Origin: Candidatus Ornithoclostridium excrementipullorum
Lineage (GTDB): Bacteria > Bacillota > Clostridia > Christensenellales > UBA3700
Assembly: GCA_018716085.1 (NCBI GenBank)
Contig: DVKK01000047.1
Span: 908-64,907 of the forward strand
Length of the DNA stretch: 64,000 bases
Reading direction: 5' to 3'
Position 1 is the first letter of the stretch. Each line of letters opens with the position of its first letter. This document shows, piece by piece, positions 2,665 through 55,410 of this stretch. The notes under the pieces are model-generated. The model did not search any database and had not been told where the DNA came from. It worked only from the letters and a program-made list of their open reading frames with translations. The position numbers were made by a program, and so were the translations under genes.

Positions 2665-3012
2665 TGGTGGAGCTGAGGGGAGTTGAACCCCTGTCCAAGA
2701 AAATTTTCAGGCCGCTTTCTACATACTTATCGGATGTTTATCGTCCCGTGCAGGCTACGTCCGCAAAGCCTGTTCCGGCAAGCCGCAAGATCTTGTCGCG
2801 TCGACTGCGGCGCATCGCCGCGACCCTTTTCCACTGACCGATGTCCGTAGGGGAGCGTGGAGATCCCCCGGGACAGCTTAGCTGCAATTAGGCAGCGTAA
2901 GCGATTTGCTGATTGTTTTTAGCGTTTAATTTTAGGTTTCCGTTTTTACGAAGCCGAGCCTTCGGTATGCTTACGAGCCCGTCCGTTCCCCTGTCGAAGC
3001 CGAGACAGCCCC
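2665..3012 (-). ncRNA. ssrA: tmRNA
   Basis: The minus strand starts GGGGCTGTCTCGGCTTCGACAGGGG and ends GGGGTTCAACTCCCCTCAGCTCCACCA. The acceptor stem has a G3:U70 pair. Internal tag reading frame GCT AAA AAC AAT CAG CAA ATC GCT TAC GCT GCC TAA encodes AKNNQQIAYAA. Confidence 0.9.
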
Positions 3013-4128: not shown

Positions 4129-7100
4129 TTAGTATACAGGAGGGATCCGACCTGACAGGGCGATTCGTCTATAATGATCGTCAGAGTCTGTTCGTCCGCA
4201 GACAGCGACGTGTCGAAACTTGCGTCGACGCTGACGCTGAGTCCGTATTCCGCGAGCGTATCGGAGATCTCAGCGATCGTCATGCCGGAAACGTCGATTT
4301 CGCGATAATCTCCGTATCCCGAAGCATCCAGCCTTATCGATATTGTACCTTTATCGATAATTATTTCATCGTAAGAGCAATTCTGCGCATAGGTAGCCTG
4401 CGCAAGATCGGCAGATTCAAAATATGCATCTTGCATAAAATACACATCGAGGGAAGTGAAGGCTCCCGCATATCCGATCCTGTATCTGAGCATATCTCCG
4501 AAGTCTTCCTCGACGGATACGGTGACTTCGCTGTGATCGACAAGCTCCTCCTCGGCTACACCGTGTCCGTATTCGACGGTGAGGGTGAAGTCCTCGCCCG
4601 CGACGGGGGCACGGTTCTCCGTCAATATTATCGGGTCGGGAGATATGGAAATGCCCGTCACGAGTTCGGCTTCCGCATCGGGTATCACGACGTAGTAGTC
4701 CGGGATGCACAAATACGCATAGGTCGTCGATACGGACAGCGACCAGCCGTTTTCGCCGGGGGTAAAGGAAATCACGGCGTCGTCGTACGTTTTTTCGAAT
4801 TCGGAAAGCGTTGCTTCGCCGATATCGTAATTGACCCTGATAATATCTTTATACGTTTCGCTGTCGATTTCGCTCTGCTTGAATACGTTGCGGGGGGCAT
4901 CAAAATAATCGAACCGGCGTATGACTTGGGCGTCGTTGTCGACGACGGAGTAGTGTACGGTCGAGAGAAGCACGTCGGCGTCGATACCGTTGACGGTGCC
5001 CGCGATGCGGAGCTGCGCGGTACGCAGACCTCCCTCGGCGCCGTCAAAAGTCGGTTCGAGGTAGATCCCGATGTCGTAGCCTTTCTGCTCCCAGTACGCA
5101 TTCATATAGGATATAACGCTCAGCCCTGCGGTGTTTCCGTTAAAATCGACGTCGAAGGCGTTGTGGTTGAATTGCATGATCTCACCTTCCATAGTTCCGA
5201 ACAGAGCGTCGGACAGGTCGTCGATATCGGAGCCCGTAGCCAGAGCTACAGAGCTGAGTTCGAAGCTGTAATTGTAGTAGGTGGATATCGCCCACGCTAT
5301 GGATTTCACTTCCACATCCGTATGTCCGGTGATCGTTAACCCGTTGTAGCTGTAGGTAACGTCGGCGGTGACGGAACCTCCTTCGGACGTATCCGCATAG
5401 ACGGTTATCTTGTCGTATTCCGAGGCGTCGACGTTGAGAGAGGAGTATCCGTAACCGAATTTGACGGAAACGGTGAAGTCTTGAGGAGAGAGGGTTCCGC
5501 CCTGCAAAACGTAGTCATTGCCGTCCTGAGGAGCAAACTGCGCCTGTATCGAAGTGGGCATGAGCGCCAGCGCGTCTGATATCACCCGTACCGACAGAGT
5601 GCAGTTGTAATAGCCGACGCGAAGAGATATCTTATATTGGTCGAACGTTATGTCAACTCCGTCTATGTTGTAGGACACCTTTCCGGTCTTCTCCGCGGTC
5701 AGACTGACGTTGTCGCCGTCGAGCGAGCCGTAGTCGTCCAAAGTTTTTATCGACCCGTCCGTCATAGTGAGAGTGATCCCGAGCCCGTCGAAGTTTTCAG
5801 TCAGCCTTTGCAGGAAGGCGTTGACATCGGAGATATCGCTTTCACTGAAGACCGTTTGACCGATAATCATACTTTGAACGAATTGTTCGTCCAAAGGCGC
5901 GCTGAAAGAAGTGGATCCTACGGTTACGTTGACCGAAACAATTTCGGCAGGATCCTGGTCGGGAGAGTAGACGGCGTATTCGAAGGATCTCTGTCGGAGG
6001 ACTTCGCCGTCGTTGTTGACCAGGCTTACGGTGGCGGTCTTGCCGTACGTCAATGCCGACGTGTCAACGCTTATCTGTAATTCGACCCCGTATTGCTCGA
6101 GATCGGCGTTAAGCTCCGCCACCGTTTTGGTTTTGCTGTAATTTGCCGGATAGTATTTGAATCCGAGGTAGACGCTCGGTTGCAGTTCGCCCGACGTAGT
6201 CGCGTCCTCGCCTTTGGTAAACAGGACGCTTGAGTCGATACTCAGAGAAGAAGAAGTGACCGTAAGGGCTTCCTGCATGGTAACGACCGTGACTTCGGCG
6301 GATCGGGAGCTGTCGTACGTATCAAGACCGGACAGCGATACGGTAAAGGTCTGCTTTCCGAGCTGCGAGGGGTCGAGACCGTCCGTTACGACCTGTATAT
6401 CGTCGTAGAAGCCGGGGATCTCTCTCGCGTTGATACCATAAGACATGATGACGTTGAAGTCAGCAATGAAAGTGCCGTTCTGCGGCAAAACATTGCAGTA
6501 GTCGTATGACACATCCGTTATGTTCGATTCGAGGTTGTCGGGATCGAACACGCTGTAAACTATCGGGAAGGATACCGTGCCGAAGATCGGGTCGGTATAC
6601 GATCCCTTGGCGACGTACAGTCCTGCGGGCTGCGAAGTGTCCATGTCGGTGATCGTAAGTTCGTGGTTGCCGGTGCTCACCATAAGACCGCTCGTCTTGT
6701 GGATAAACGTTTCGGGAACGTGACTGTTCATCGTCAGCATCGATTCTGCGGCATCTACTGAAGAGCCCTTCATCACGATCAGACCGGGCAGAGTGTGCCT
6801 GGAGTTGTACAGTTCGAACTTGCTCGCCGTGGCGCTGTCGTAGGCATAGCAGTCGACTGTGGCGGAGCAGCCCTCGATCGTGACCGTTGCGGTGAAAGCG
6901 CCTTCCTTCGTGCTGTCGAACGCTATCGCGTAGTTGCTCAGGTCCGTCACGGTCATCGACGTGCCGAGGTCGGCGTCGTAGAACGTGAACATCGCATACG
7001 AAGAGAGCGCCGAGACGAGGTCGTCCTTTTGCGTGCCTACGGGCACGAATACGGTATTAGTTTGCATGACGTCGAGATAGTCGTCGGACGAAATGCGTTC

Positions 7101-17826: not shown

Positions 17827-17917
17827 GCAGAGTTGTCCGAGAGGTCGATGGTGCAGCACTCGAAATGCTGTGTTGCCTAATAGGTAACCCAGGGTTCGAA
17901 TCCCTGACTCTGCGCCA
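17827..17917 (+). tRNA. tRNA-Ser (anticodon CGA), CCA encoded
   Basis: Acceptor GCAGAGT/ACTCTGC, anticodon stem CAGCA/TGCTG with loop CTCGAAA, long variable arm GTTGCC-TAAT-AGGTAAC, T-arm CAGGG-TTCGAAT-CCCTG. Confidence 0.9.
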
Positions 17918-31998: not shown

Positions 31999-32916
31999 AT
32001 GGAAACTGTTCTCGCGATCGCAATATGCGTCGCGGCGGTATGCGCCGCCGCGGCGCTTGCGCTGTCTGTCAAAACGATAGCCGTGCGCCGCACTTTGGCG
32101 GACATGGCGGATACTTTGGAGGAAGCCGAGGATTCGAACGTCGTAGTACGCGTGCGAACGAGGGACAAGGCGGTCCGAGCGGCGGCAGAGGCGTTGAACG
32201 ACGAATTGACAAAACTGCGGAAAGCGCGTTCCGAATACTCGCAGGGCAGCAGGGATCTCGATACCGCGATAGTGAACATGGCGCATGATCTCCGCACTCC
32301 GCTGACAGCCGCGCTCGGGTGGCTCGAACTGTGCGATAAGACGGACGATCCCGTCAAACTGCACGGATACGCTCAGGCTGCCCGCGACGCGGCGACAAGA
32401 CTCAAAGAACTGACCGAAGAGCTGTTCGGGTATGCGCTCGCTCACGAAAAGGAGAAGCCCGAATTCGACAGGGCGGATCTGACCGAAGCGCTCAGGCGCG
32501 CGGTGCTTGCTTCATACGCCGCGTTCGGGCTCAAAGGCGTCGAGCCGAAGATCGATCTGCCCGACGCCCCCGTATGGGCGATCTCGGACTGCCGAATGTT
32601 GGAGAGGATCTTCGACAACATAATTTCCAATGCGCTCAAATACGGCAAAGACGGCTTTTTCGTTTCGCTCGACGAGAAGGGAGTGGTCAAAATTGGCAAT
32701 AACTGCGAAGGGTTGGACAGCGTGGACGTAGCGAGAATGTTCGACAGGTTTTTTACGGTGAAAAACGCACGGTCTTCTTCGGGACTCGGGTTGTCGATAG
32801 CAAAGACGCTCACCGCAAGGCTGGGAGGGAAGATATACGCCGATCTGGACAAAGACGTGCTGACGGTCACCGTCGATTTTTCGCAAACGCTTTGCGAAAT
32901 CGCGCGCGAAAAATGA
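31999..32916 (+). CDS. sensor histidine kinase with a single TM helix and no extracytoplasmic domain
   Basis: H-box MAHDLRTPLTA, N-box ISNALKYG, G2-box SGLGLSIAK. There is only one N-terminal TM helix. Confidence 0.85.
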   Translation: METVLAIAICVAAVCAAAALALSVKTIAVRRTLADMADTLEEAEDSNVVVRVRTRDKAVRAAAEALNDELTKLRKARSEYSQGSRDLDTAIVNMAHDLRTPLTAALGWLELCDKTDDPVKLHGYAQAARDAATRLKELTEELFGYALAHEKEKPEFDRADLTEALRRAVLASYAAFGLKGVEPKIDLPDAPVWAISDCRMLERIFDNIISNALKYGKDGFFVSLDEKGVVKIGNNCEGLDSVDVARMFDRFFTVKNARSSSGLGLSIAKTLTARLGGKIYADLDKDVLTVTVDFSQTLCEIAREK

Positions 32917-32999
32917 TTTTTCTCCGAAAATGTTTGACATCGCGGCGATTTGGTGCTATAACGGTGTCGATAAAGAAATTTATCTCGGAGGTTATGACT

Positions 33000-33218
33000 A
33001 TGGACAAGTTCGAAAGACAGCAGCAGCTCGACGTAGAGAAATGGGTAGACAGCGAAAACAAGGGATACGATACCTGCGGTTTCTATTCTTACTGCGCGGC
33101 ATGCGATAAGAGCGCGGAGAATCCCTGCGCCACCGCGGAAGAGAAGGCAAGCGCGAAGAAGCCCGCCAAGAAAGCCGCGAAGAAGCCGGCTGCCAAAAAG
33201 AGCAAGAAGACCGCTTGA
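33000..33218 (+). CDS. small Cys4 protein with a lysine-rich KKPAKK tail (72 aa), unknown function
   Basis: GGAGG lies 8 nt upstream of ATG 33000. Contains CX6CX2CX7C (CGFYSYCAACDKSAENPC) and the tail AKKPAKKAAKKPAAKKSKKTA. A strong terminator follows. Confidence 0.55.
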   Translation: MDKFERQQQLDVEKWVDSENKGYDTCGFYSYCAACDKSAENPCATAEEKASAKKPAKKAAKKPAAKKSKKTA

Positions 33219-36973: not shown

Positions 36974-38681
36974 GGACGCGTTCTTTTATCAGATCTATCC
37001 GCGCAGCTTCTGCGACGGCAACGGGGACGGTATCGGCGATCTGCGCGGTATAATATCCAAACTGGATTACATAAAGGATCTCGGCGTCAATGCGGTATGG
37101 CTCTCGCCGTGTTACAAGTCGCCCAACGACGACAACGGATACGATATCAGCGACTACCGCGACATCATGGACGAATTCGGTACGATGGCGGATTTCGAGG
37201 AATTGATAAACGGTCTGCACGAGCGCGGCATAAAGCTCATCATGGATCTTGTCGTCAATCACACGTCCGACGAACACTGGTGGTTCAAAGAGAGCCGTTC
37301 GTCCAAGGCAAATCCGTACCGCGACTACTATTACTGGAAAAAGGGCAGGGGCAAGAACGGCAAACGCCCTCCCAACAACTGGATGTCCAATTTTCTCGGA
37401 CCGGCATGGAAGTATGAGGAGAATACCGACGAGTGGTATCTGCACATCTTTTCCTACAAACAGCCCGATCTCAACTGGAACAACCCCAAGGTGCGGCAGG
37501 AAGTCGCCGACATATGCAATTTCTGGTTCGAAAAGGGCGTGGACGGATTCCGCTGCGACGTGATAACCTATATATCCAAAAAGGACGGACTGCCCAACGG
37601 CAAGATCAAACTGCCGCTGATCGGATTCGAGCAATATTGCCTTACGGAGAATTACCACAAATTCATCAAAGAAGTCGCCGACAAGTCGTGGAACCGCTAC
37701 GATACGACGATAGTGGGCGAAGCGATGGGCATCACTTCGTCCAACGCCGCCCAATATATCGACGAGAGCGTGGGCGAACTGGACTGCGTGTTCGCGTTCG
37801 AGCATACCAACTGCGACCGCTATACCCAGATCCTGCCGCACAAACTCAGCGTGAAGAAGCTGAAGAGCATTTTCGCCAGGTGGCAGGCTCTGCCCGAAAC
37901 GTGCACGCCGACTTTGTTTTTCGAGAATCACGACCAGCCGCGCAGCGTGCCGCGCTTCGTCGGTTACGACTGCGGCGAGCACAGGGACAAGGCGGCGAAA
38001 ATGCTTCCCGTCGCGCTTTATATGCAAAGGGGAGTGCCGTTCGTGTTCCAAGGGCAGGAGCTGGGCATGAGCGATATCCCGATCGGCAGGGAGGGCGAAG
38101 TGTGGCGCGACGGCAAGCCCGTCAAGGCGGTGCTCAAAGAGGAAGAAGTGTACAAGGATATCCTGTCCGTCAACGCCATGAAGATGTTCCGCAAACGCGC
38201 TCCGTTCCTCATGCCGATAGTCAAAAAGGTGCTCAAAAAGGTCGCCCGCGACCATGCGCGTACCCCGATGCAGTGGAGCGACGCCGCCAACGCGGGGTTC
38301 TGCCCCGAGGGCGTGGAGCCTTGGATGACGGTCAATCCCGACTATAAGAGAGTCAACGTCGCCGCCGAACAGGCGGACGGGGACAGCGTTCTGAACTATT
38401 ACAAGAAGCTTATCGCGTTCCGCAGATCAAGCGATTGCGTAAAGCGGGGCAAGTTCAAAGAATATTACGCAAAGAGCGGTAAGCTGTATGTCTACGAACG
38501 CCGTACCGAACAGAGCACCGTCGCCGTCGTCTGCAATTTTACCAAGACGGAGCAGCCGTTCGCTCTGCCCGAGGAATGGAAAGGCAAAGAGAGCGAATGC
38601 AGACTGTGCAATTACGACGAGATAAGACCTCTTGCGGACAGAATGCTGCGTCCGTTCGAGGCTGCCGTGTACGAGTTCTGA
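36954..38681 (+). CDS. GH13 alpha-glucosidase / oligo-1,6-glucosidase
   Basis: YQIYPRSFCDGNGDGIGDL, GVDGFRCDV, VGEA and FENHDQPR match GH13 regions I-IV. Start is at ATG 36954 after GAGGAGG. Confidence 0.9.
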   Translation: MKTRWYKDAFFYQIYPRSFCDGNGDGIGDLRGIISKLDYIKDLGVNAVWLSPCYKSPNDDNGYDISDYRDIMDEFGTMADFEELINGLHERGIKLIMDLVVNHTSDEHWWFKESRSSKANPYRDYYYWKKGRGKNGKRPPNNWMSNFLGPAWKYEENTDEWYLHIFSYKQPDLNWNNPKVRQEVADICNFWFEKGVDGFRCDVITYISKKDGLPNGKIKLPLIGFEQYCLTENYHKFIKEVADKSWNRYDTTIVGEAMGITSSNAAQYIDESVGELDCVFAFEHTNCDRYTQILPHKLSVKKLKSIFARWQALPETCTPTLFFENHDQPRSVPRFVGYDCGEHRDKAAKMLPVALYMQRGVPFVFQGQELGMSDIPIGREGEVWRDGKPVKAVLKEEEVYKDILSVNAMKMFRKRAPFLMPIVKKVLKKVARDHARTPMQWSDAANAGFCPEGVEPWMTVNPDYKRVNVAAEQADGDSVLNYYKKLIAFRRSSDCVKRGKFKEYYAKSGKLYVYERRTEQSTVAVVCNFTKTEQPFALPEEWKGKESECRLCNYDEIRPLADRMLRPFEAAVYEF

Positions 38682-38867
38682 TACCGGATCTCGGATGCGG
38701 GATTACGGCGCGCGACGGCGCGCCGCTTTCGCATAGATCGCGGCGTCCGCCCACGGCGATCCGAATGCGTCCGACGCCGCGCGGCAAGCGTTTTGCACCC
38801 GACGAGCGTTCCTGTTGCGATATGGCGAAAAATGCATAAAAAAACGTATACGTGTAGGTTTTTTTAG

Positions 38868-38896
38868 TTGAAAACACGCGTCATACGTGTTATAAT
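38868..38896 (+). promoter_or_regulatory. near-consensus promoter of the GtrA-YegP fusion gene
   Basis: TTGAAA (38868..38873), 17 nt, TATAAT (38891..38896). The spacer holds ACACG-N7-CGTGT. Confidence 0.6.
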
Positions 38897-38927
38897 TAAA
38901 GCATATCTATCCTGAGAGGAGGAAATT

Positions 38928-40775
38928 ATGGCTAAAAAGAAACCGGATAGCGAAGTCACGGAAGAGACTTCTGCGGTAGATCTCGGTGACGAGCAGGCGA
39001 TCGTCGAAGAACCCGAGAAAAAGAAAGGAACTCTGTTGCAGTTGGTGCTTTTCATCGCGTTGAGCATCATAGCCTGCGTGGTCCAGATGTTGATAATCAA
39101 CTATCTGCCCATGGCTATCAAAAACGACACTATGGTCGACGCGTGGATATTCTCCCAACCGCTCAACTCTCTTATAGGTTTTTTGGTAGGTAATGTCGTA
39201 GCGAAGCTGCTTTCTTACTTCCTTAACAGAAAAGCTACTTTCGGTGCCCGTAAGCATTTCGCGTTCAGCATGACCGTATACGTCATAATGTGCGTCGTGC
39301 TCATTATAGTAGAAACTTTGATCGGAGAACCGCTTAAACAGCAGTATATAGCGCTTCTCGGAGATTCTATGGCGAAAGTATCGTTCTTTGCGAGCGATAT
39401 CGAGGGTTGGTGTAATATCCTTTCCATCATCACATATTCCTGCGCCGATCTTATTATCGTGTTCATCATGAACAAATTAGTGATCATGAACGATCACATA
39501 TTCGACAGATTCGAGAAGAAAAAGGCTGTCGCGGCTGAAGGCGAGGAAAATGCTGCAGAGCAGCAGACCGACAGCGACGTCGTTGACAACGACGAAGCGG
39601 TAGCCGAGATCGTTGCCGATTCCGTAACCGAACAGTCAGAAGTTTCGGAGGGAGCGTCCGCGGTCGATAACGGCGTAGAGGCGGAAGTTCCCGCAGAGGA
39701 AGCCGTCGCTTATGAGGGATCGGTCGAGGAGACGGCGGAAGAGCCCGCCGAGGCAGTCGAAGAGACCGTTTCCGAAGAGACGGTCGCAGAGCAGCTCGAG
39801 GAAGAAGCCGTAGTCGAAGAAACGGAAAAAGCCGCAGCGGATGAGCCCGCCACGGAGGAAGACGTCCCCGCTGAAGAGGCTGAGAATAAGGAAGAGGTCG
39901 CGGAGGCGGAAGTCCCCTCAGAGGAAGCCGCAGCGTACGAGGAACCTGCCGAGGAGGCGCAGGAAGCTCCCGTCGAGATAGAGGAAGCTCCCGTCGAAGA
40001 AACCGTCGTTGAACAGACCGCCGCCGAGGAGAAAGCCGAAGAAGCGCCTGTCGACGAGAATGTCGTCGAAGAGCCCGCTCCCGTAGAAGAGAGCGAAGCG
40101 GCGCCTGCGGAAGCGAACGAGGCTCCCGTCGAAGAAGTTGCCGCCGCAGAGGAGAAACCCGTCGAGAAGAAGTCCTCCGCGAAAAAGGCTCCCGCAAAGA
40201 AGCCTGCCGCAAAGAAGACCGCGGATAAAAAGCCCGCCGCAAAGAAAGCGGACGAGAAGAAGACTGCGGCAAAGAAGACGGACGAGAAGAAGCCCGCCGC
40301 CAAGAAGACCGCGGATAAAAAGACTGAGGCAAAGAAGGACGAACCCAAGAAGACTGCGGCAAAACCCGAGGCGAAGGAACCCGTAAACAACGTGACCGTG
40401 TTGTTCGACGCGCCCGAGACCGAAGGACCCAAGGGCAAGTTCGTCATCATCAAGGACGAGATCAACCCGATGCGCCCGTACAAGTTCCAGCTCAAAGCCA
40501 ACAACGGACAGGTGCTGTACGAGAGCGAAGGATACAAGATCAAGCCCAGAGCCAAGCAGATCGAAGTGTTCCGCAATACGATCAATAACGGATCCGTTGC
40601 TTTCGATTCCGAGAAGAACGGAACCTATCGTTACAAGCTGTTCAAGCCGGACGGCACGCTTTACGGCGTAGGCGAAGGCTATAAGACCAAAGCCGCCGCG
40701 GAGAGTGCGATCGAGTCGGTCAAGAACTTCTGCAACACGTCCAATACTCTCGAAGATACGACTTTGGGAGAATAA
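38928..40775 (+). CDS. fusion protein: GtrA-like 4-TM domain + acidic E/A/P/V repeats + KKPAAKK-type basic repeats + two YegP (DUF1508) domains
   Basis: GtrA-type motif VVAKLLSYFLNRKATFG within 4 TM helices. YegP-like segments YKFQLKANNGQVLYESEGYKIK and YRYKLFKPDGTLYGVGEGYKTKAAAESAIESVKN. Strong SD GAGGAGG, own promoter and terminator. Confidence 0.8.
   Translation: MAKKKPDSEVTEETSAVDLGDEQAIVEEPEKKKGTLLQLVLFIALSIIACVVQMLIINYLPMAIKNDTMVDAWIFSQPLNSLIGFLVGNVVAKLLSYFLNRKATFGARKHFAFSMTVYVIMCVVLIIVETLIGEPLKQQYIALLGDSMAKVSFFASDIEGWCNILSIITYSCADLIIVFIMNKLVIMNDHIFDRFEKKKAVAAEGEENAAEQQTDSDVVDNDEAVAEIVADSVTEQSEVSEGASAVDNGVEAEVPAEEAVAYEGSVEETAEEPAEAVEETVSEETVAEQLEEEAVVEETEKAAADEPATEEDVPAEEAENKEEVAEAEVPSEEAAAYEEPAEEAQEAPVEIEEAPVEETVVEQTAAEEKAEEAPVDENVVEEPAPVEESEAAPAEANEAPVEEVAAAEEKPVEKKSSAKKAPAKKPAAKKTADKKPAAKKADEKKTAAKKTDEKKPAAKKTADKKTEAKKDEPKKTAAKPEAKEPVNNVTVLFDAPETEGPKGKFVIIKDEINPMRPYKFQLKANNGQVLYESEGYKIKPRAKQIEVFRNTINNGSVAFDSEKNGTYRYKLFKPDGTLYGVGEGYKTKAAAESAIESVKNFCNTSNTLEDTTLGE
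40182..40378 (+). repeat. in-frame tandem repeat of about 30 nt (10 aa, KKT[A/D][D/E]KKPAA type), about 6 units
   Basis: aagaagaccgcggataaaaagcccgccgca / aagaaagcggacgagaagaagactgcggca / aagaagacggacgagaagaagcccgccgcc / aagaagaccgcggataaaaagactgaggca / aagaaggacgaacccaagaagactgcggca. Confidence 0.8.
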
Positions 40776-40795
40776 GATAGATCGCTGTCATGCGC

Positions 40796-40823
40796 ACGCG
40801 CGTCCGAAAGGGCGCGCGTTTTC
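40796..40823 (+). terminator. intrinsic terminator
   Basis: ACGCGCGTCC-GAAA-GGGCGCGCGT followed by TTTT. Confidence 0.75.
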
Positions 40824-41112
40824 CGTATTTCGGTAAAAGGATAAGAAACGCGCAGGGGAGAAAGGCGAAGGAAAAGGACGGCTGAAACGAAGGATAAAAG
40901 CCGTCGTTAAAAGCGTAAAGCGAAGCGTAACGGACGTTGCGGGAGAGTTGTGCAGCGGAAAAGGGCGCTCGGCAGGACTTGCGTCGACTTGTCCGTAATA
41001 TGCGCATTTGCTCCGTCGGCACCGATATACGTATTCCCGAGCCGTGCGACGCAGTATTCGTCGATACGCTGAGCGGTCTTTTGAAAGTACGTTTACGGCG
41101 TGAAAAGCCGAC

Positions 41113-41137
41113 AAAAAAGCCGCCCCGAAGGGCGGCT
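41113..41137 (-). terminator. intrinsic terminator after the transketolase C-subunit gene
   Basis: Minus strand GCCGCCC-TTCG-GGGCGGC followed by TTTTTT. Confidence 0.75.
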
Positions 41138-41157
41138 CTCATTATTTTTATCCAATA

Positions 41158-42096
41158 TTATTTCCTCTGCATTGCTTTGACGGCTGCGTCGACGATGTTG
41201 CTCGGATTTAGACCGTATCTGTCGGCGAGATAAGCCATTTTGCCGACTTCGCCGAATTGGTCTTTTACGCTCACGCTCTCGACGGGGACGGGGCACAGTC
41301 CGGAGGTCACTTCCGATACCGCGCTCGTAAGGCCGTTGAATATATTGTGGTTTTCGGCGACGACGACCGCGCCCGTCTTTTTGACGGATCTGACGATCGT
41401 TTCTTCGTCGATCGGTTTCCAGGTGTAGACGTTGACTATCTCTGCGTCTATGCCGCGATCCTTGAGTATCTCCGCTGCTTTGATCGCACGGTCTACCATG
41501 ATACCGCTGGCAATGATCGTGACGTCGCGACCGGACCTTACGGTAAAGGCTTTGAACAGATCGAACTGCGCGCCGTCTTCGAATATCTTTTCCGTCTTTT
41601 TGCGGAACAGACGGATATATACGGCTCCTTTGTAGTCGGCTATCTGAGGCATCAGCGATTTGAGCATGGCTCCGTCGGTCGGTTCCACGCAGACCATCTG
41701 CGGTATACCGCGCATTATGCCCATGTCCTCGAACGGCATATGAGTGCCGCCGTTGAGCTCTGCGCAGATGCCGGGGTCGGTGCCGACTATTTTGACGTTC
41801 TGTTTGCTGTAAGCTACCGAGATGAATATCTGATCGAAACAGCGGCGAGTGGCAAACGTGGCGAAAGAAGAGCAGAAGGGCACTTTGCCGCAGGTCGCAA
41901 GACCGGCGGATATACCGATCATATTCGCTTCGGCTACGCCTACGTCGAAGAAACGGTCGGGATACGCCTTTTTGAAAGGGCCCGTCTTGATACAGTTCAT
42001 CAGGTCGGCTTCGACGACGACGATATCTTTGTTCGTCTTCGCCATTTCTATAAGACTGTCGCAGTATATCTCGCGCATCTCTTTAAGATCTTGCAT
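41158..42096 (-). CDS. transketolase, C-terminal (pyrimidine-binding) subunit
   Basis: GVAEANMIGISAGLA and overall length fit the split transketolase C-subunit. SD AGGAGG is upstream. Confidence 0.9.
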   Translation of the reverse strand: MQDLKEMREIYCDSLIEMAKTNKDIVVVEADLMNCIKTGPFKKAYPDRFFDVGVAEANMIGISAGLATCGKVPFCSSFATFATRRCFDQIFISVAYSKQNVKIVGTDPGICAELNGGTHMPFEDMGIMRGIPQMVCVEPTDGAMLKSLMPQIADYKGAVYIRLFRKKTEKIFEDGAQFDLFKAFTVRSGRDVTIIASGIMVDRAIKAAEILKDRGIDAEIVNVYTWKPIDEETIVRSVKKTGAVVVAENHNIFNGLTSAVSEVTSGLCPVPVESVSVKDQFGEVGKMAYLADRYGLNPSNIVDAAVKAMQRK

Positions 42097-42920
42097 CAGT
42101 CTGCCTCCTTATTGCAGAATTCGCGCCATTCGGCTTCGGATATGCTGAAGCTGTGGCTGCCCACGCCCTTGCTCTCGGCAAAGGGCACTCCGTGTCCCTT
42201 TACGGTGTCCAGAACGATGCAAGTGCATACGCCCTTGGCTTTGTGCGCGCGGTCGATCGCAGCGGATATCGCGGCGATATCGTGTCCGTTCACGCGTTCC
42301 GAACGCAGATTGAACGCTTCGCATTTTTTGTCGAAAGGCTCGATGCTGTTGATCGCGTCGGTGTAGTCGTCTATCTGCATTTTGTTGTTGTCGAGGAAGA
42401 TCGTCAGATTATCCAGTTTCATGTTGCCTGCGTACATCATCGCCTCCCAGATCTGACCTTCCTGAGATTCGCCGTCGCCTATGACGGCGTAAACTCTGTA
42501 ATCTTTTTTGTCTATCTTCGCGGCGAGAGCCATGCCGACCGCGCAGCTGAGCCCCTGGCCGAGAGAACCTGCGGTCATATCGACGCCCACGGTCTTGTTC
42601 ATGTCGCAATGCGACGGCAGTTCGGTCCCCGGGAGATTGAGAGTTTTGATCTTTTCGAGCGGGAAATATCCTTTGTCGGCAAGCACGGAATAAAGAGCCG
42701 GACCTGCGTGACCTTTGCTCAAAACTATCCTGTCGCGGTCGGGATCTTTGGGATCGGACGGATTAACGCGCGCTTTGTCGTAATACAGAACGGTCAGAAG
42801 TTCGACTATCGAGAGCGATCCTCCGACGTGTCCGACGCCGAGCCTGCCGATCATCTCGATGATCAGTTTGCGTATATCGTCGGCTTTGCCGTTCAGAAAT
42901 TCGAGTTTCTCCTTGTTCAT
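42096..42920 (-). CDS. transketolase, N-terminal (TPP-binding) subunit
   Basis: GHVGGSLS and GDGESQEGQIWEA TPP-binding motifs. Start reassigned to ATG 42920 after GGAGG. The stop overlaps the C-subunit start (TGATG). Confidence 0.9.
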   Translation of the reverse strand: MNKEKLEFLNGKADDIRKLIIEMIGRLGVGHVGGSLSIVELLTVLYYDKARVNPSDPKDPDRDRIVLSKGHAGPALYSVLADKGYFPLEKIKTLNLPGTELPSHCDMNKTVGVDMTAGSLGQGLSCAVGMALAAKIDKKDYRVYAVIGDGESQEGQIWEAMMYAGNMKLDNLTIFLDNNKMQIDDYTDAINSIEPFDKKCEAFNLRSERVNGHDIAAISAAIDRAHKAKGVCTCIVLDTVKGHGVPFAESKGVGSHSFSISEAEWREFCNKEAD

Positions 42921-43433: not shown

Positions 43434-45152
43434 ATGTTACTGAGCAAACTGGTTTGCGAGAGAATGAAGGAAGTCCCGCAGGACGCCAAGATAAAGAGCC
43501 ACGTGCTTTTGGTCCGCGCGGGATTTATCAAGCAGGTCGCGGGCGGCATCTATACGATGACGATGCCCTGTCAGAAAATGAGCCTGAAAATACAAAAGAT
43601 AATCCGCGAGGAGATGGATGCCGAGGACGGGCAGGAAGTGCTTTTCCCCGTCGTGATGCCGCGCGAGTTGTGGGAACAGTCCGGCAGATATTCTTCCATC
43701 GGGCAGGAGATGGTGCGTTTTAAGGACAGAGGCGACCGCGATATGCTTCTCGGCATGACGCACGAAGAGGCCGCGGTGCATCTTGCCAATCATACCGTAT
43801 CCAGCTATCAGCAGCTGCCCATGATGATATATCAGTTGCAGACCAAGTTCCGCGACGAGGCGAGACCCCGCGGAGGTCTGATCCGCGTACGCGAATTCAC
43901 GATGAAGGACGCGTATTCCTTCCATTGCGACAGCGCCGATCTCGAAAAGTATTACTATCGTATGTACGACGCCTATTACCGCATATTCAGGCGGATAGGG
44001 CTCAAAAATTTCATCGACGTCAAGTCGGACAGCGGCATGATGGGAGGCTCGGTCGCTCACGAATTCATGCTGATCACGCCCGACGGCGAGGACAGCATCG
44101 TTTTCTGCAACGACTGTGATTACAGAGCCAATATGGAAGTCGCCGTTTCGGTCATAGACAGACCCGAGGCGGAAGACGAACCGATGCGCGAGATATATAC
44201 CGGCGAAGACAAGACGATAGAGGAAGTCTGCGCAAGACTGAACATTCCCGCAAGCCGTACCGTCAAAGCCGTGGTTTACGCGGTAAAGGGCGACAGCGAC
44301 GAGCTTGTGGTCGCGTTCATTCGCGGCGATCTCGAAGTCAACGAGGCAAAGCTCAAAAAGGTGTTGGGCAAGAACGTCGTAGCTTACGACGGGGGCATAA
44401 GCGAGGATATCGTCTGCGGCAATATAGGCGCGATAGGTCTTTCGGATAAGATCGTCAAGGTGTTCGACAAGTCGCTCGAAGGTTGCAAAGGCATGGTGAC
44501 GGGCGCGAATAAGCCCGAATATCATATTGCGGGAGTCAACGTCGCGCGCGATTTCGGAGATGTGACGTTCGTAGACGTCGCAAAAGCCGCCGCAGGGCAC
44601 CGTTGCCCCGTATGCGGAGGCGCTCTCCGCGTGGAGAACGGTATCGAGATAGGCAATATCTTCCAGTTGGGGACGAAATATACCGCTTCCATGAATATGA
44701 CCGTCAACGGTCCGGACGGAACGGCGTTCAATCCGATCATGGGCTGTTACGGGATCGGCGTGGGCAGGGCGATAGGTTCTATCGCGCAGGAGTCCAACGA
44801 CGAATACGGATTGATACTGCCTATGAGCGTCGCTCCGTGGCAGGTCCATATCTGCGCGCTGCGTTACGACGACGATGCTGTCAGGAGCAAAGCCGACAAA
44901 CTGTATGCCGACCTGCGCGCAGCGGGAGTCGAGGTGTTGTTCGACGACAGGAACTGCGGCGCGGGCGTCAAGTTCGCGGACGCTGACCTTATGGGTATGC
45001 CGATACGCGTCGTCATATCTCCCAAAACGCTTGCCGAAGATAAGGTCGAGATCAAGTTGAGAAGAGAAAAGACCGCCGAGCGCGTCGATCTGTCCGAAGC
45101 GGTTTCCGAGATATGCCGCACGATCGAAAAAGAGCTCGAAGCTTTGAAATAA
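43434..45152 (+). CDS. proS: prolyl-tRNA synthetase (bacterial type with editing insertion)
   Basis: Class II motif 2 FRDEARPRGGLIRVREFTMKDAYSF. The 572-aa length fits an INS domain. Confidence 0.95.
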   Translation: MLLSKLVCERMKEVPQDAKIKSHVLLVRAGFIKQVAGGIYTMTMPCQKMSLKIQKIIREEMDAEDGQEVLFPVVMPRELWEQSGRYSSIGQEMVRFKDRGDRDMLLGMTHEEAAVHLANHTVSSYQQLPMMIYQLQTKFRDEARPRGGLIRVREFTMKDAYSFHCDSADLEKYYYRMYDAYYRIFRRIGLKNFIDVKSDSGMMGGSVAHEFMLITPDGEDSIVFCNDCDYRANMEVAVSVIDRPEAEDEPMREIYTGEDKTIEEVCARLNIPASRTVKAVVYAVKGDSDELVVAFIRGDLEVNEAKLKKVLGKNVVAYDGGISEDIVCGNIGAIGLSDKIVKVFDKSLEGCKGMVTGANKPEYHIAGVNVARDFGDVTFVDVAKAAAGHRCPVCGGALRVENGIEIGNIFQLGTKYTASMNMTVNGPDGTAFNPIMGCYGIGVGRAIGSIAQESNDEYGLILPMSVAPWQVHICALRYDDDAVRSKADKLYADLRAAGVEVLFDDRNCGAGVKFADADLMGMPIRVVISPKTLAEDKVEIKLRREKTAERVDLSEAVSEICRTIEKELEALK

Positions 45153-54964: not shown

Positions 54965-55172
54965 TAAAAAAATCCGTCTTCGACGTGGGCGAAAACGGAA
55001 ACGATGATCCTTGTCCGCAAATAGCCCTCCATCGAACGATGACAGTTATGAGACTTTCGTCGTCATACCCAGCCGAACCTGCTCCAAAGCGCCCGGGACG
55101 GCTTCGGCGATGCTCCCTTTCGTCGGCGTTCTTTGAAACGTAGTTCCGATTACTGATGAGTACCGCGCCTCT
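54965..55172 (-). promoter_or_regulatory. lysine riboswitch (L-box) with terminator, leader of asd-dapA-dapB
   Basis: The minus strand reads AGAGGCGCGGTACTCATCAGTAATC...GAAAGGGAGCATCGCCGAAGCC...TTGGAGCAGG...AACTGTCATCGTTCGATGGAGGGCTAT. This matches the conserved L-box blocks. A CCGTTTTCG/CGAAGACGG hairpin plus TTTTTTT follows. Promoter TTTACA-17-TATCAT lies just upstream. Confidence 0.85.
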
Positions 55173-55410
55173 ATTGCACGACAATGATATCACAAAGGTG
55201 CGCCCGTGTAAAGCGATTTGCGCAAAAAAATGCGTTTTTCGCGGCCCGACGCGCTTTTTCCGCGGGTTTTCGTGCATAAAGAAAACGGCGCGCGAGGCGG
55301 GTTTTCGCCGTTTTGCGGCAAAAATTTCGGGTGCTCCCCATATTTGTTTGCGATTTTCGCGGCAATAGTGTATTATATTCAGTATTAAAGGAGAGCGGCT
55401 CGGGCCGCGT

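Follow-up and report, generated by a model that had tools for sequence, protein, structure and literature searches.

The gene described here lies at positions 38928–40775 of a 64,000-nucleotide stretch of the genome of Candidatus Ornithoclostridium excrementipullorum, a member of the Christensenellaceae (contig DVKK01000047.1; the whole stretch is hereinafter called the window). It encodes a protein in which a divergent GtrA-like membrane domain is connected by a long charged linker to a C-terminal YegP-type module of two DUF1508 domains, and its membrane domain is represented in a sister species by two strongly diverged alleles. An earlier note on this DNA, made from the sequence without database searches, had drawn attention to the three-part architecture, which is real: the open reading frame (ORF) is present exactly as described, without interruption and with an ATG start. 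The 615-aa product is identical to NCBI HIT27072.1 from the same organism, as found by exact-sequence look-up, and is labelled there only as 'DUF1508 domain-containing protein'. The gene, its signals and the regions of its product are as follows.

38868..38896, plus strand: candidate sigma-70-type promoter (-35 TTGAAA, 17-nt spacer, TG-extended -10 TATAAT); consensus match only
38914..38922, plus strand: Shine-Dalgarno sequence GAGAGGAGG, read from the sequence, ending 5 nt 5' of the ATG
38928..40775, plus strand: coding sequence, 615 aa, stop codon included; from the ORF list
38928..39029, plus strand: N-terminal charged segment, aa 1–34, predicted cytoplasmic from composition and family-wide enrichment in lysine and arginine
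39030..39524, plus strand: divergent GtrA-like four-helix membrane domain, aa 35–199, from hydropathy, AlphaFold2, alignments and transitive profiles
39528..40139, plus strand: acidic low-complexity linker, aa 201–404, from composition; length polymorphic between strains
40140..40376, plus strand: lysine-rich, histone-H1-like repeat segment, aa 405–483, of KKPAA/KKTAD pentapeptides
40377..40436, plus strand: conserved lead-in of the YegP module, aa 484–503 (NVTVLF, PKGK), from invariant columns of alignment A4
40437..40592, plus strand: first DUF1508 domain, aa 504–555, from Pfam, alignment to the first half of E. coli YegP (2K8E) and a beta-beta-beta-alpha unit in the model
40593..40730, plus strand: second DUF1508 domain, aa 556–601, from Pfam, NCBIfam, PDB sequence matches and Foldseek
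40796..40823, plus strand: probable intrinsic terminator (10-bp GC-rich stem, GAAA loop, then UUUU)

Domain architecture of the protein

The identification of the C-terminus (aa 484–615) as a bona fide YegP/UPF0339-type tandem DUF1508 module is secure in both sequence and fold. The Pfam DUF1508 model (PF07411) is matched over two stretches; the full-length protein scores 54.7 bits and the last 135 aa alone score 60.1 bits, so that the two segments noted earlier pass the curated cut-off of 22. The best of these stretches spans aa 563–600, the NCBIfam HVO_2922 family is matched over aa 563–601, and PDB sequence matches for the second domain include 2K7I, 2K8E, 2K49 and 6Q2Z. In phmmer, residues 34–129 of the module align with residues 30–126 of E. 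coli YegP (2K8E), and SO_3888 (2K49) is also aligned, both domains being covered. The AlphaFold2 model of the module (pLDDT 70) consists of two beta-beta-beta-alpha units, with a further short strand (E6-8) predicted at low confidence in the lead-in, and its top Foldseek matches are 2K8E (E = 3.4e-4, TM-scores 0.60/0.67) followed by 2K49, with a probability of 1.00 each. Across homologues with diverged linkers, the module is 80–100% identical. It is not a small free-standing soluble protein in this case: it makes up the last 132 of the 615 residues of a membrane protein. In a PHROGs scan, two families of unknown function were detected, both matching the DUF1508 part, and no defence family of PADLOC-DB was matched at E<=0.1.

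The membrane domain is preceded by a charged segment that terminates in EKKKG immediately ahead of helix 1. Kyte-Doolittle analysis reveals four hydrophobic segments (aa 32–65, 81–100, 108–138 and 160–187), and the AlphaFold2 model built on 23 relatives contains four helices (aa 34–63, 79–105, 111–149 and 158–199; pLDDT 82, pTM 0.72) and a small beta-hairpin in loop 1, the first outward loop. Four membrane helices are likewise predicted for GtrA-family proteins (PMC7389260). The Pfam family GtrA_DPMS_TM (PF04138) yields 18.3 bits when the entire protein is scanned and 21.6 bits when the domain is scanned alone (E 2.6e-4 to 2.8e-3), which is below the 26.1-bit gathering threshold, yet it is the top match of the membrane domain. 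The assignment becomes much clearer when relatives are included. In profile searches, PF04138 is matched at E<=0.01 by 22 of the 23 close relatives and by 40 of 42 distant ones, and it is the top and nearly the only Pfam match across the family; the gathering score is passed, with the full model, by 8 of the 10 most distant relatives (27.4–37.7 bits), and the profile of the distant relatives matches the ORF of the window with E = 7e-33. An hhalign comparison with E. coli GtrA (YfdG) gives a probability of 50% with alignment A3 and 87.5% with alignment A5, pairing the loop-2 stretch LNRKATF with ANAKFTF of YfdG and the C-terminal NKLVIMN with SKFIVFR. A search of PDB sequences with the membrane-domain profile returned chance-level matches only. 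The domain is best described as divergent GtrA-like, its link to GtrA being solid by transitivity, but not as a certified GtrA. Thus, of the earlier description of four transmembrane helices with a GtrA-type motif, the helices and the motif hold, whereas membership in GtrA is sub-threshold and comes only by transitivity.

The motif in question, VVAKLLSYFLNRKATFG, holds most of the family-invariant residues (N89, A92, K93, S96, Y97, L99, N100, R101, K102, T104 and F105). The invariant polar residues of the membrane domain as a whole, as identified in the alignments, are Q38, Q53, N89, K93, N100-R101-K102, E129-T130 and D174, and the intrahelical K93, E129 and D174 are invariant or nearly so among relatives that are 30–60% identical. 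Given the invariance of the charged and polar residues within the helices and the existence of stand-alone versions of 167–210 aa, the membrane domain is best regarded as a conserved unit with a function of its own and not simply as an anchor. In GtcA, the essential residues are R95 in helix 3 and N132 in helix 4 (PMC7389260). The position of the helix-3 arginine, mapped through the low-confidence hhalign alignment with YfdG, is occupied by the invariant S114, so the essential arginine appears to be replaced by a serine; the N and F positions of the loop-2 motif (N100 and F105) are conserved. The clade defined by this domain is small: a search of 1.84 billion proteins gave 268 representatives at E<=0.001. 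A narrow word-index search with the membrane domain gave 8 matches only, and profile searches reached further.

Averaged over the 23 relatives, the number of lysine and arginine residues is 2.4 in the N-terminal flank, 3.6 in loop 2 and 3.0 in the C-terminal flank, compared with 1.0 in loop 1 and 1.5 in the 28-residue loop 3, and the same pattern is seen in this protein. Given this positive-inside pattern, and given that GNAT, NUDIX and HAD domains, which have cytoplasmic substrates, occur at the same position in relatives, the four helices very probably adopt an N-in/C-in arrangement with a cytoplasmic tail. The prediction of structure and topology that had been proposed as a check thus yields four helices in this orientation and, in the tail, the two beta-beta-beta-alpha units.

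The tail begins with the acidic stretch of ~204 aa (E 32%, A 21%, V 14%, P 6%; net charge -73). This region had been taken for E/A/P/V-rich acidic repeats at ~200–400; the acidic bias is there, but Tandem Repeats Finder detects no tandem array at the DNA level, and the stretch is therefore a compositional bias rather than a set of repeats. The adjacent lysine-rich segment (K 36%, A 26%; net charge +16), reported earlier as KKPAAKK/KKTADKK repeats, is a true tandem array, with a period of 15 nt and ~11.4 copies at positions 40167–40337 according to the same program. It scores below the cut-offs for Pfam HC2 (PF07382; 30.3 bits vs 40) and NCBIfam Hc2 (NF038052; 32.1 bits vs 135), and its histone-H1-like resemblance, judged from these K/A/P repeats, is compositional only. 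Among homologues, the whole linker, acidic and basic parts together, spans 197–310 aa and is acidic in all family members, and in every one of them an at least short K-rich patch is located just N-terminal to the first DUF1508 domain.

Between close relatives, linker length differs by insertions and deletions, with the acidic-then-basic composition retained. The window contains a second histone-H1-like K/A/P tail, in a small cysteine-rich ORF (32892–33218, plus strand; probable start at an internal ATG, ~73 aa) that ends in AKKPAKKAAKKPAAKKSKKTA.

Two membrane-domain alleles in a sister species

The most unusual feature of the gene is an intraspecific swap of the membrane-domain cassette, which the earlier note had missed. 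In one sister species, two homologues (P0035 and P0082) are nearly identical in the N-terminal segment (30/31 positions), the linker (221/229) and the C-terminal part (133/133), whereas only 61 of the 150 positions of the membrane domain (41%) are identical. At the DNA level, the loci that encode these two proteins (L016 and L002) show 96.4% identity on either side of the cassette, and identity drops to 52–74% over ~500 nt (6101–6600 in L016), a segment with sharp edges that coincides with the membrane domain (compare positions 39015–39525 of the window). Alleles that are 41% identical between flanks that are 96–100% identical represent an unusual population-genetic signal. Both allele types are common: of the 118 homologues whose sequences were divisible into regions, the two types account for ~37 and ~40 clusters. 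The species of the window carries type A: compared with type A proteins of the sister species, its membrane domain shows 86% identity and its C-terminal module ~80%, which suggests that type A is shared between the two species.

The coexistence of two ancient alleles within one species suggests balancing or diversifying selection acting on the membrane domain. Possible causes of the dimorphism are different lipid-linked substrates, different partner enzymes and phage pressure. A search of IMG/VR with the membrane-domain profile revealed no viral relative of the cassette, and a phage origin of the swapped segment is therefore unsupported.

Conservation, relatives and genomic neighborhood

A search of 5.8 billion proteins detected at least 345 homologues in NCBI, ENA and Logan assemblies, so the fusion, which the earlier note had proposed to seek in other genomes, is indeed found there. 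The best 120 of these homologues are all 479–628 aa in length, and 118 of the 120 contain the membrane motif together with the one at the start of the C-terminal module. The contigs that encode homologues reach 1.8 Mb, including a 1.8-Mb HiFi chromosome, and the very same protein sequence was found on 8 contigs of up to 277 kb. Recurrence of the ORF in hundreds of independent assemblies places the feature far beyond chance. Among species-representative genomes, the family is present in Christensenellaceae, Christensenella and metagenome-assembled genomes (MAGs) of other Clostridia. The DUF1508 domains number two or four behind the same membrane domain and acidic linker; the version with four domains, that is, two YegP-like pairs, is encoded in the distant MAG loci L003, L004, L005, L007, L008 and L014, of which L003 and L004 come from Christensenella.

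The membrane domain is not confined to the fusion with DUF1508. Its stand-alone relatives are 167–210 aa long, one of which carries the JGI label 'putative flippase GtrA', and in further relatives from other Clostridia the fourth helix is followed by a different domain, namely GNAT (P0171; L013 5836–7290), NUDIX (P0279) or HAD (P0288), or else by nothing more than a lysine-rich tail (P0181). From these architectures, the divergent GtrA-like domain seems to serve quite generally as a platform in the membrane to which cytoplasmic modules (DUF1508, GNAT, NUDIX, HAD) are attached. In the loci examined, no yegP-like gene was found near the genes for unfused membrane domains.

The genomic neighborhood was analyzed over about 6 kb on each side of the gene; in the distant loci, the neighbors (HAD, Fe-ADH, proS, luxS) were named from their translations and not from library scans. 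The window shares with the loci L001 and L002 the order cysK, comF-like gene, alpha-glucosidase gene, the gene described here, split transketolase genes on the opposite strand, and proS. In the loci that encode four DUF1508 domains, the order is HAD-like ORF, Fe-ADH-like ORF, the homologue and proS, and in those of them that extend far enough (L003, L004, L005 and L014), proS is followed by a 141-aa ORF taken as luxS. The repeated occurrence of proS next to the gene is apparently a matter of synteny and no more. Neither a GtrB-type GT2 glycosyltransferase nor a GT-C glycosyltransferase is encoded beside the gene at any of the loci examined.

Three further observations concern the surroundings of the gene. 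The homologue is located directly upstream of proS in the six distant MAG loci; in the window and in the sister species, a transketolase split into N- and C-terminal halves encoded by two genes (41158–42920 in the window, minus strand) is inserted before proS (43434–45152, plus strand). In L002, a locus on a Christensenellaceae chromosome, the 1.9-kb intergenic region 5' of the homologue includes, at 4500–5400, families of direct and inverted repeats of 44–90 nt that possibly resemble repetitive extragenic palindromes or miniature inverted-repeat transposable elements. The counterpart of this region in the window (38682–38927) is only 246 bp long and contains none of those repeats.

Expression signals

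The candidate promoter matches the consensus at 11 of the 12 positions and has the TG extension, according to a pattern scan. It implies a leader of only ~25 nt, which excludes a riboswitch, and a permissive Rfam scan of positions 38000–42000 gave nothing relevant to the gene. Downstream of the stop codon, the hairpin at 40796–40819, followed by UUUUCCGUAUUU, is more stable than shuffled sequences in RNA folding (z = -2.98). A stricter pattern scan reported no terminator directly 3' of the stop codon. The plus-strand match of the same scan at 41118–41137 is located just below the stop of the minus-strand transketolase ORF (41158–42096), and we read it as the probable terminator of the transketolase gene because the T run follows on the minus strand. 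Intergenic gaps always separate the gene from its neighbors, here and in the relatives, supporting the view that it would form a transcription unit of its own in all of them. Thus, the scans, the RNA folding and the gaps in the relatives bear out what had been noted from the sequence, namely a monocistronic gene with a near-consensus promoter, a strong Shine-Dalgarno sequence and its own terminator. Elsewhere in the window, no paralogues of the membrane domain or of the DUF1508 domain were detected.

The ~290 bp between the two terminators (40824–41117) contain no convincing ORF, Rfam match or repeats; the equivalent gap in the sister loci is ~750 bp.

Comparison with known families

The membrane domain shares with the GtrA/GtcA family (PF04138, IPR007267; E. 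coli YfdG, GtrA of Shigella phage SfX, GtcA of Listeria and B. subtilis, Rv3789 of M. tuberculosis) the set of four membrane-spanning helices, the motif N-x-(K/R)-x-(T/F)-F in cytoplasmic loop 2 and the C-terminal K-F-V/I-I/V. It differs in being longer (~165 aa compared with ~120 aa), with longer outward loops and a predicted hairpin, in having its own invariant K93, E129 and D174 and apparently a serine in place of the helix-3 arginine, and in its sub-threshold Pfam score. Further differences are the 415-residue, predicted cytoplasmic tail, the lack of gtrB/gtrC-type genes among the neighbors analyzed and the small size of the clade, which is restricted to Clostridia. A precedent in layout is the type-III dolichyl-phosphate mannose synthase of Pyrococcus furiosus (PMC12992685), in which a GtrA-like membrane domain is covalently joined to a cytoplasmic domain; in that enzyme, however, the cytoplasmic part is an N-terminal GT-A glycosyltransferase that is coupled directly, without a disordered linker. 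This synthase was not recovered when the membrane model was compared with the PDB by Foldseek.

The C-terminal module is alignable with E. coli YegP and other UPF0339 proteins (2K8E, 2K49; single-domain 2K7I, 6Q2Z and 3BID) and shares with YegP the tandem DUF1508 organization and the predicted pseudo-dimer fold, at a sequence identity of 22–28%. Unlike YegP, which is a free, soluble protein of ~110 aa, the module described here is the C-terminus of a membrane protein and follows charged disordered segments. Tandem DUF1508 domains also serve as an accessory part, proposed to be a sensor or adaptor, on unrelated domains in the NsnA variants of Menshen (PMC12065111) and in the DUF1508-Ubl proteins of Bub operons (10.1101/2024.11.21.623966). 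In those soluble proteins, the module is N-terminal and the genes belong to defence or ubiquitin-like operons, whereas here it is C-terminal and membrane-tethered, with no PADLOC match and no defence genes in the neighborhood.

The lysine-rich segment resembles chlamydial Hc2 and the Burkholderia H1-like proteins (PF07382, NF038052/NF038053) in its K/A/P pentapeptide repeats, with all matches sub-threshold; unlike in those proteins, the repeat is internal to a membrane protein and is not retained in distant members of the family. In overall design, the protein is analogous to ZipA and TonB, which consist of a membrane anchor, a long extended linker and a small globular binding domain, the TonB linker containing acidic and then basic proline-containing stretches. 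The analogy does not extend to family membership: no Pfam match to either was obtained, and neither is among the top 50 Foldseek matches listed. In TonB, moreover, the linker is periplasmic. The anchor in our case consists of four helices with conserved polar residues.

Within the searchable literature, we found no paper that describes a fusion of a GtrA-like domain with DUF1508. The combination had been presented as undescribed, and this holds for publications; it is nevertheless a recurrent, conserved family, and the protein itself is already in NCBI. What is new here is the conserved way in which known types of domain are combined, together with the unusual allelic cassette. As this is a single gene composed of such types, its importance is moderate. 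The carriers are uncultured Christensenellaceae of animal guts, which are of interest for host health and in which almost no gene functions have been studied.

Proposed function and alternatives

Structures of YegP/DUF1508 proteins have been available since 2008, with no function assigned; in the literature, they appear as products of a gene induced by multiple stresses in E. coli (PMC9501238), as a proposed infection sensor in Menshen NsnA, where tandem DUF1508 has been likened to the PC4/Whirly superfamily of single-stranded nucleic-acid-binding proteins (PMC12065111), as a pseudo-dimeric accessory module of other proteins (10.1101/2024.11.21.623966), and downstream of the DNA-damage-responsive capK/capS regulators, which yegP-like genes follow in 57 cases (PMC13373217). 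The natural, conserved fusion analyzed here would put YegP at the cytoplasmic face of the membrane beside a tail of the polyanion-binding type and so gives a clue to both its site and the kind of ligand. The other half of the protein represents a small clade of divergent GtrA-like membrane domains that serves as a platform for several cytoplasmic domains. We tentatively propose as the preferred explanation, short of considering it probable, that the protein is a membrane tether whose lysine-rich segment and YegP module capture a polyanionic cytoplasmic ligand near the membrane. The gene and its conservation, the identity of the domains, the composition of the linker and the modular exchange of the membrane domain are shown by the analysis, and in this scheme we infer the topology, the ligand and the coupling of the two ends. 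The four-helix domain would be seated in the inner membrane with both termini facing the cytoplasm and may bind, perhaps even translocate, a polyprenyl-phosphate-linked sugar or a similar lipid. The acidic disordered chain of ~200 residues, repelled by the anionic surface of the membrane, would act as a spacer, at the end of which the lysine-rich segment and the YegP-type pseudo-dimer of two DUF1508 domains would be displayed. The ligand would most likely be single-stranded nucleic acid or, otherwise, another polyanion or a protein partner. Tethering, and perhaps nucleic acid as a target of the basic repeats, had been suggested in the earlier note; the idea agrees with the cytoplasmic topology predicted for the tail and with the published Whirly/PC4-like proposal for tandem DUF1508 (PMC12065111), and the histone-H1-like repeats next to the module and the K-rich patch kept by every member of the family speak for it as well. 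For an anchoring role of the membrane half, the precedent is Rv3789 of the GtrA family, for which, according to the citation in PMC12992685, a recruiting rather than a flipping role is debated.

Several observations weigh against this proposal. The negative charge of the linker far exceeds the positive charge of the basic segment (-73 against +16), which would disfavor the binding of a polyanion unless the two regions are kept apart in space. The long lysine-rich repeat is absent from distant members of the family, which have a short K-rich patch, and therefore cannot be essential to the core function of the family. The nucleic-acid version of the proposal in particular is weakened by this restricted distribution, by the zero net charge of the YegP module and by the fact that the Whirly-type structures PBF-2 (1L3A) and MRP (2GJE) are matched by Foldseek only at E ~0.13–0.18 and with low probability. 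Furthermore, YegP itself is uncharacterized (PMC13373217), and no functional partner is encoded in the neighborhood, where only housekeeping genes were found, so there is no hint of a pathway. Finally, the Foldseek comparison of the membrane model with the PDB and BFVD gave no match at E<=0.001; simple helical bundles are handled poorly by this method, and the result is neutral with respect to a GtrA fold.

Another explanation gives the tail no specific ligand and sees it as a highly charged, disordered 'bristle' combined with a YegP stress domain that would buffer cations, maintain hydration or spacing at the membrane surface or nucleate a condensate. The free variation of the linker in sequence and length with retention of its acidity would fit such a scenario, as would the multi-stress, stationary-phase-type induction of E. 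coli yegP (PMC9501238; 10.1101/2024.11.21.623966) and the near-consensus promoter and Shine-Dalgarno sequence, which suggest high expression. However, the strong conservation of the DUF1508 module behind diverged linkers argues for a specific interaction surface, and DUF1508 is placed as a sensor or adaptor within other multidomain proteins (PMC12065111; 10.1101/2024.11.21.623966), so that we regard this explanation as unlikely. Somewhat better placed, although we would still not expect it to be correct, is the possibility that the protein is primarily a GtrA/GtcA-type translocase of polyprenyl-phosphate-linked sugars for envelope glycosylation, with a tail that regulates it or recruits the cytoplasmic glycosyltransferase; the two alleles would then differ in sugar substrates or partner enzymes. 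The transitive homology to PF04138 and E. coli GtrA, which extends to the motifs N-x-K-x-T-F in loop 2 and KF(V/I)(I/V) at the C-terminus, and the conserved intramembrane polar residues favor this possibility, as do the relatives joined to NUDIX, HAD and GNAT enzymes, which act on nucleotide-, phospho- and acetyl-group metabolites; surface chemistry that differs from strain to strain would lead to just such a sharp dimorphism, limited to the membrane domain. Conversely, the PF04138 score of this protein is sub-threshold, the helix-3 arginine that is essential in GtcA (R95; PMC7389260) aligns, at low confidence and via YfdG, with an invariant serine, and the clade is small. Nor does a GtrB-like or GT-C glycosyltransferase adjoin the gene at the loci examined, and nothing ties DUF1508 to glycosylation. 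Tethering and flipping are not mutually exclusive.

The remaining two explanations fare considerably worse. An anchor followed by an acidic E/P-containing stretch, a basic K/P stretch and a globular C-terminus recalls TonB, and allelic dimorphism could reflect surface exposure, so the tail could be imagined outside the cytoplasm, in a TonB-like or wall-spanning arrangement in which acidic and then basic proline-containing spacers push YegP outward. This is very improbable: the even number of helices and the positive-inside pattern place both termini in the cytoplasm, the GNAT, NUDIX and HAD domains at the same position require cytoplasmic substrates, the dimorphism resides in the membrane domain and not in the tail, and the protein has no signal peptide, no wall-anchoring motif and, according to Pfam, no TonB_C or other surface domain. 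An assembly or gene-calling chimera of a gene for a small membrane protein and a yegP gene, which the earlier note had named as a possible refutation, is conceivable only inasmuch as both modules also occur as stand-alone proteins in nature, and we assign it practically no likelihood. The ORF is uninterrupted and recurs, with the same layout and conserved synteny, in independent assemblies from NCBI, ENA and Logan (the 8 contigs with the same protein and the 1.8-Mb HiFi chromosome among them), which rules out such an origin, and the shifts in composition along the gene track amino-acid bias rather than a junction.

The tethering proposal can be extended to a new kind of two-ended membrane device, in which the two ancient GtrA-like alleles, presumably maintained within a species by selection that phages or alternative chemistries of envelope lipids or glycans exert, would be coupled, mechanically or allosterically, by way of the polyelectrolyte linker to YegP, which in turn would interact with nucleic acid or the nucleoid. 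This extension is decidedly unlikely to be correct as a whole; if true, it would provide the first cellular role for the DUF1508/YegP fold, the capture or sensing of single-stranded nucleic acid close to the membrane.

Other features of the window

Three RNA elements of the window are ordinary and unrelated to the gene: a tmRNA gene (2665–3012, minus strand) with the tag AKNNQQIAYAA, a tRNA-Ser(CGA) gene (17827–17917, plus strand) and a lysine riboswitch (55014–55181, minus strand).

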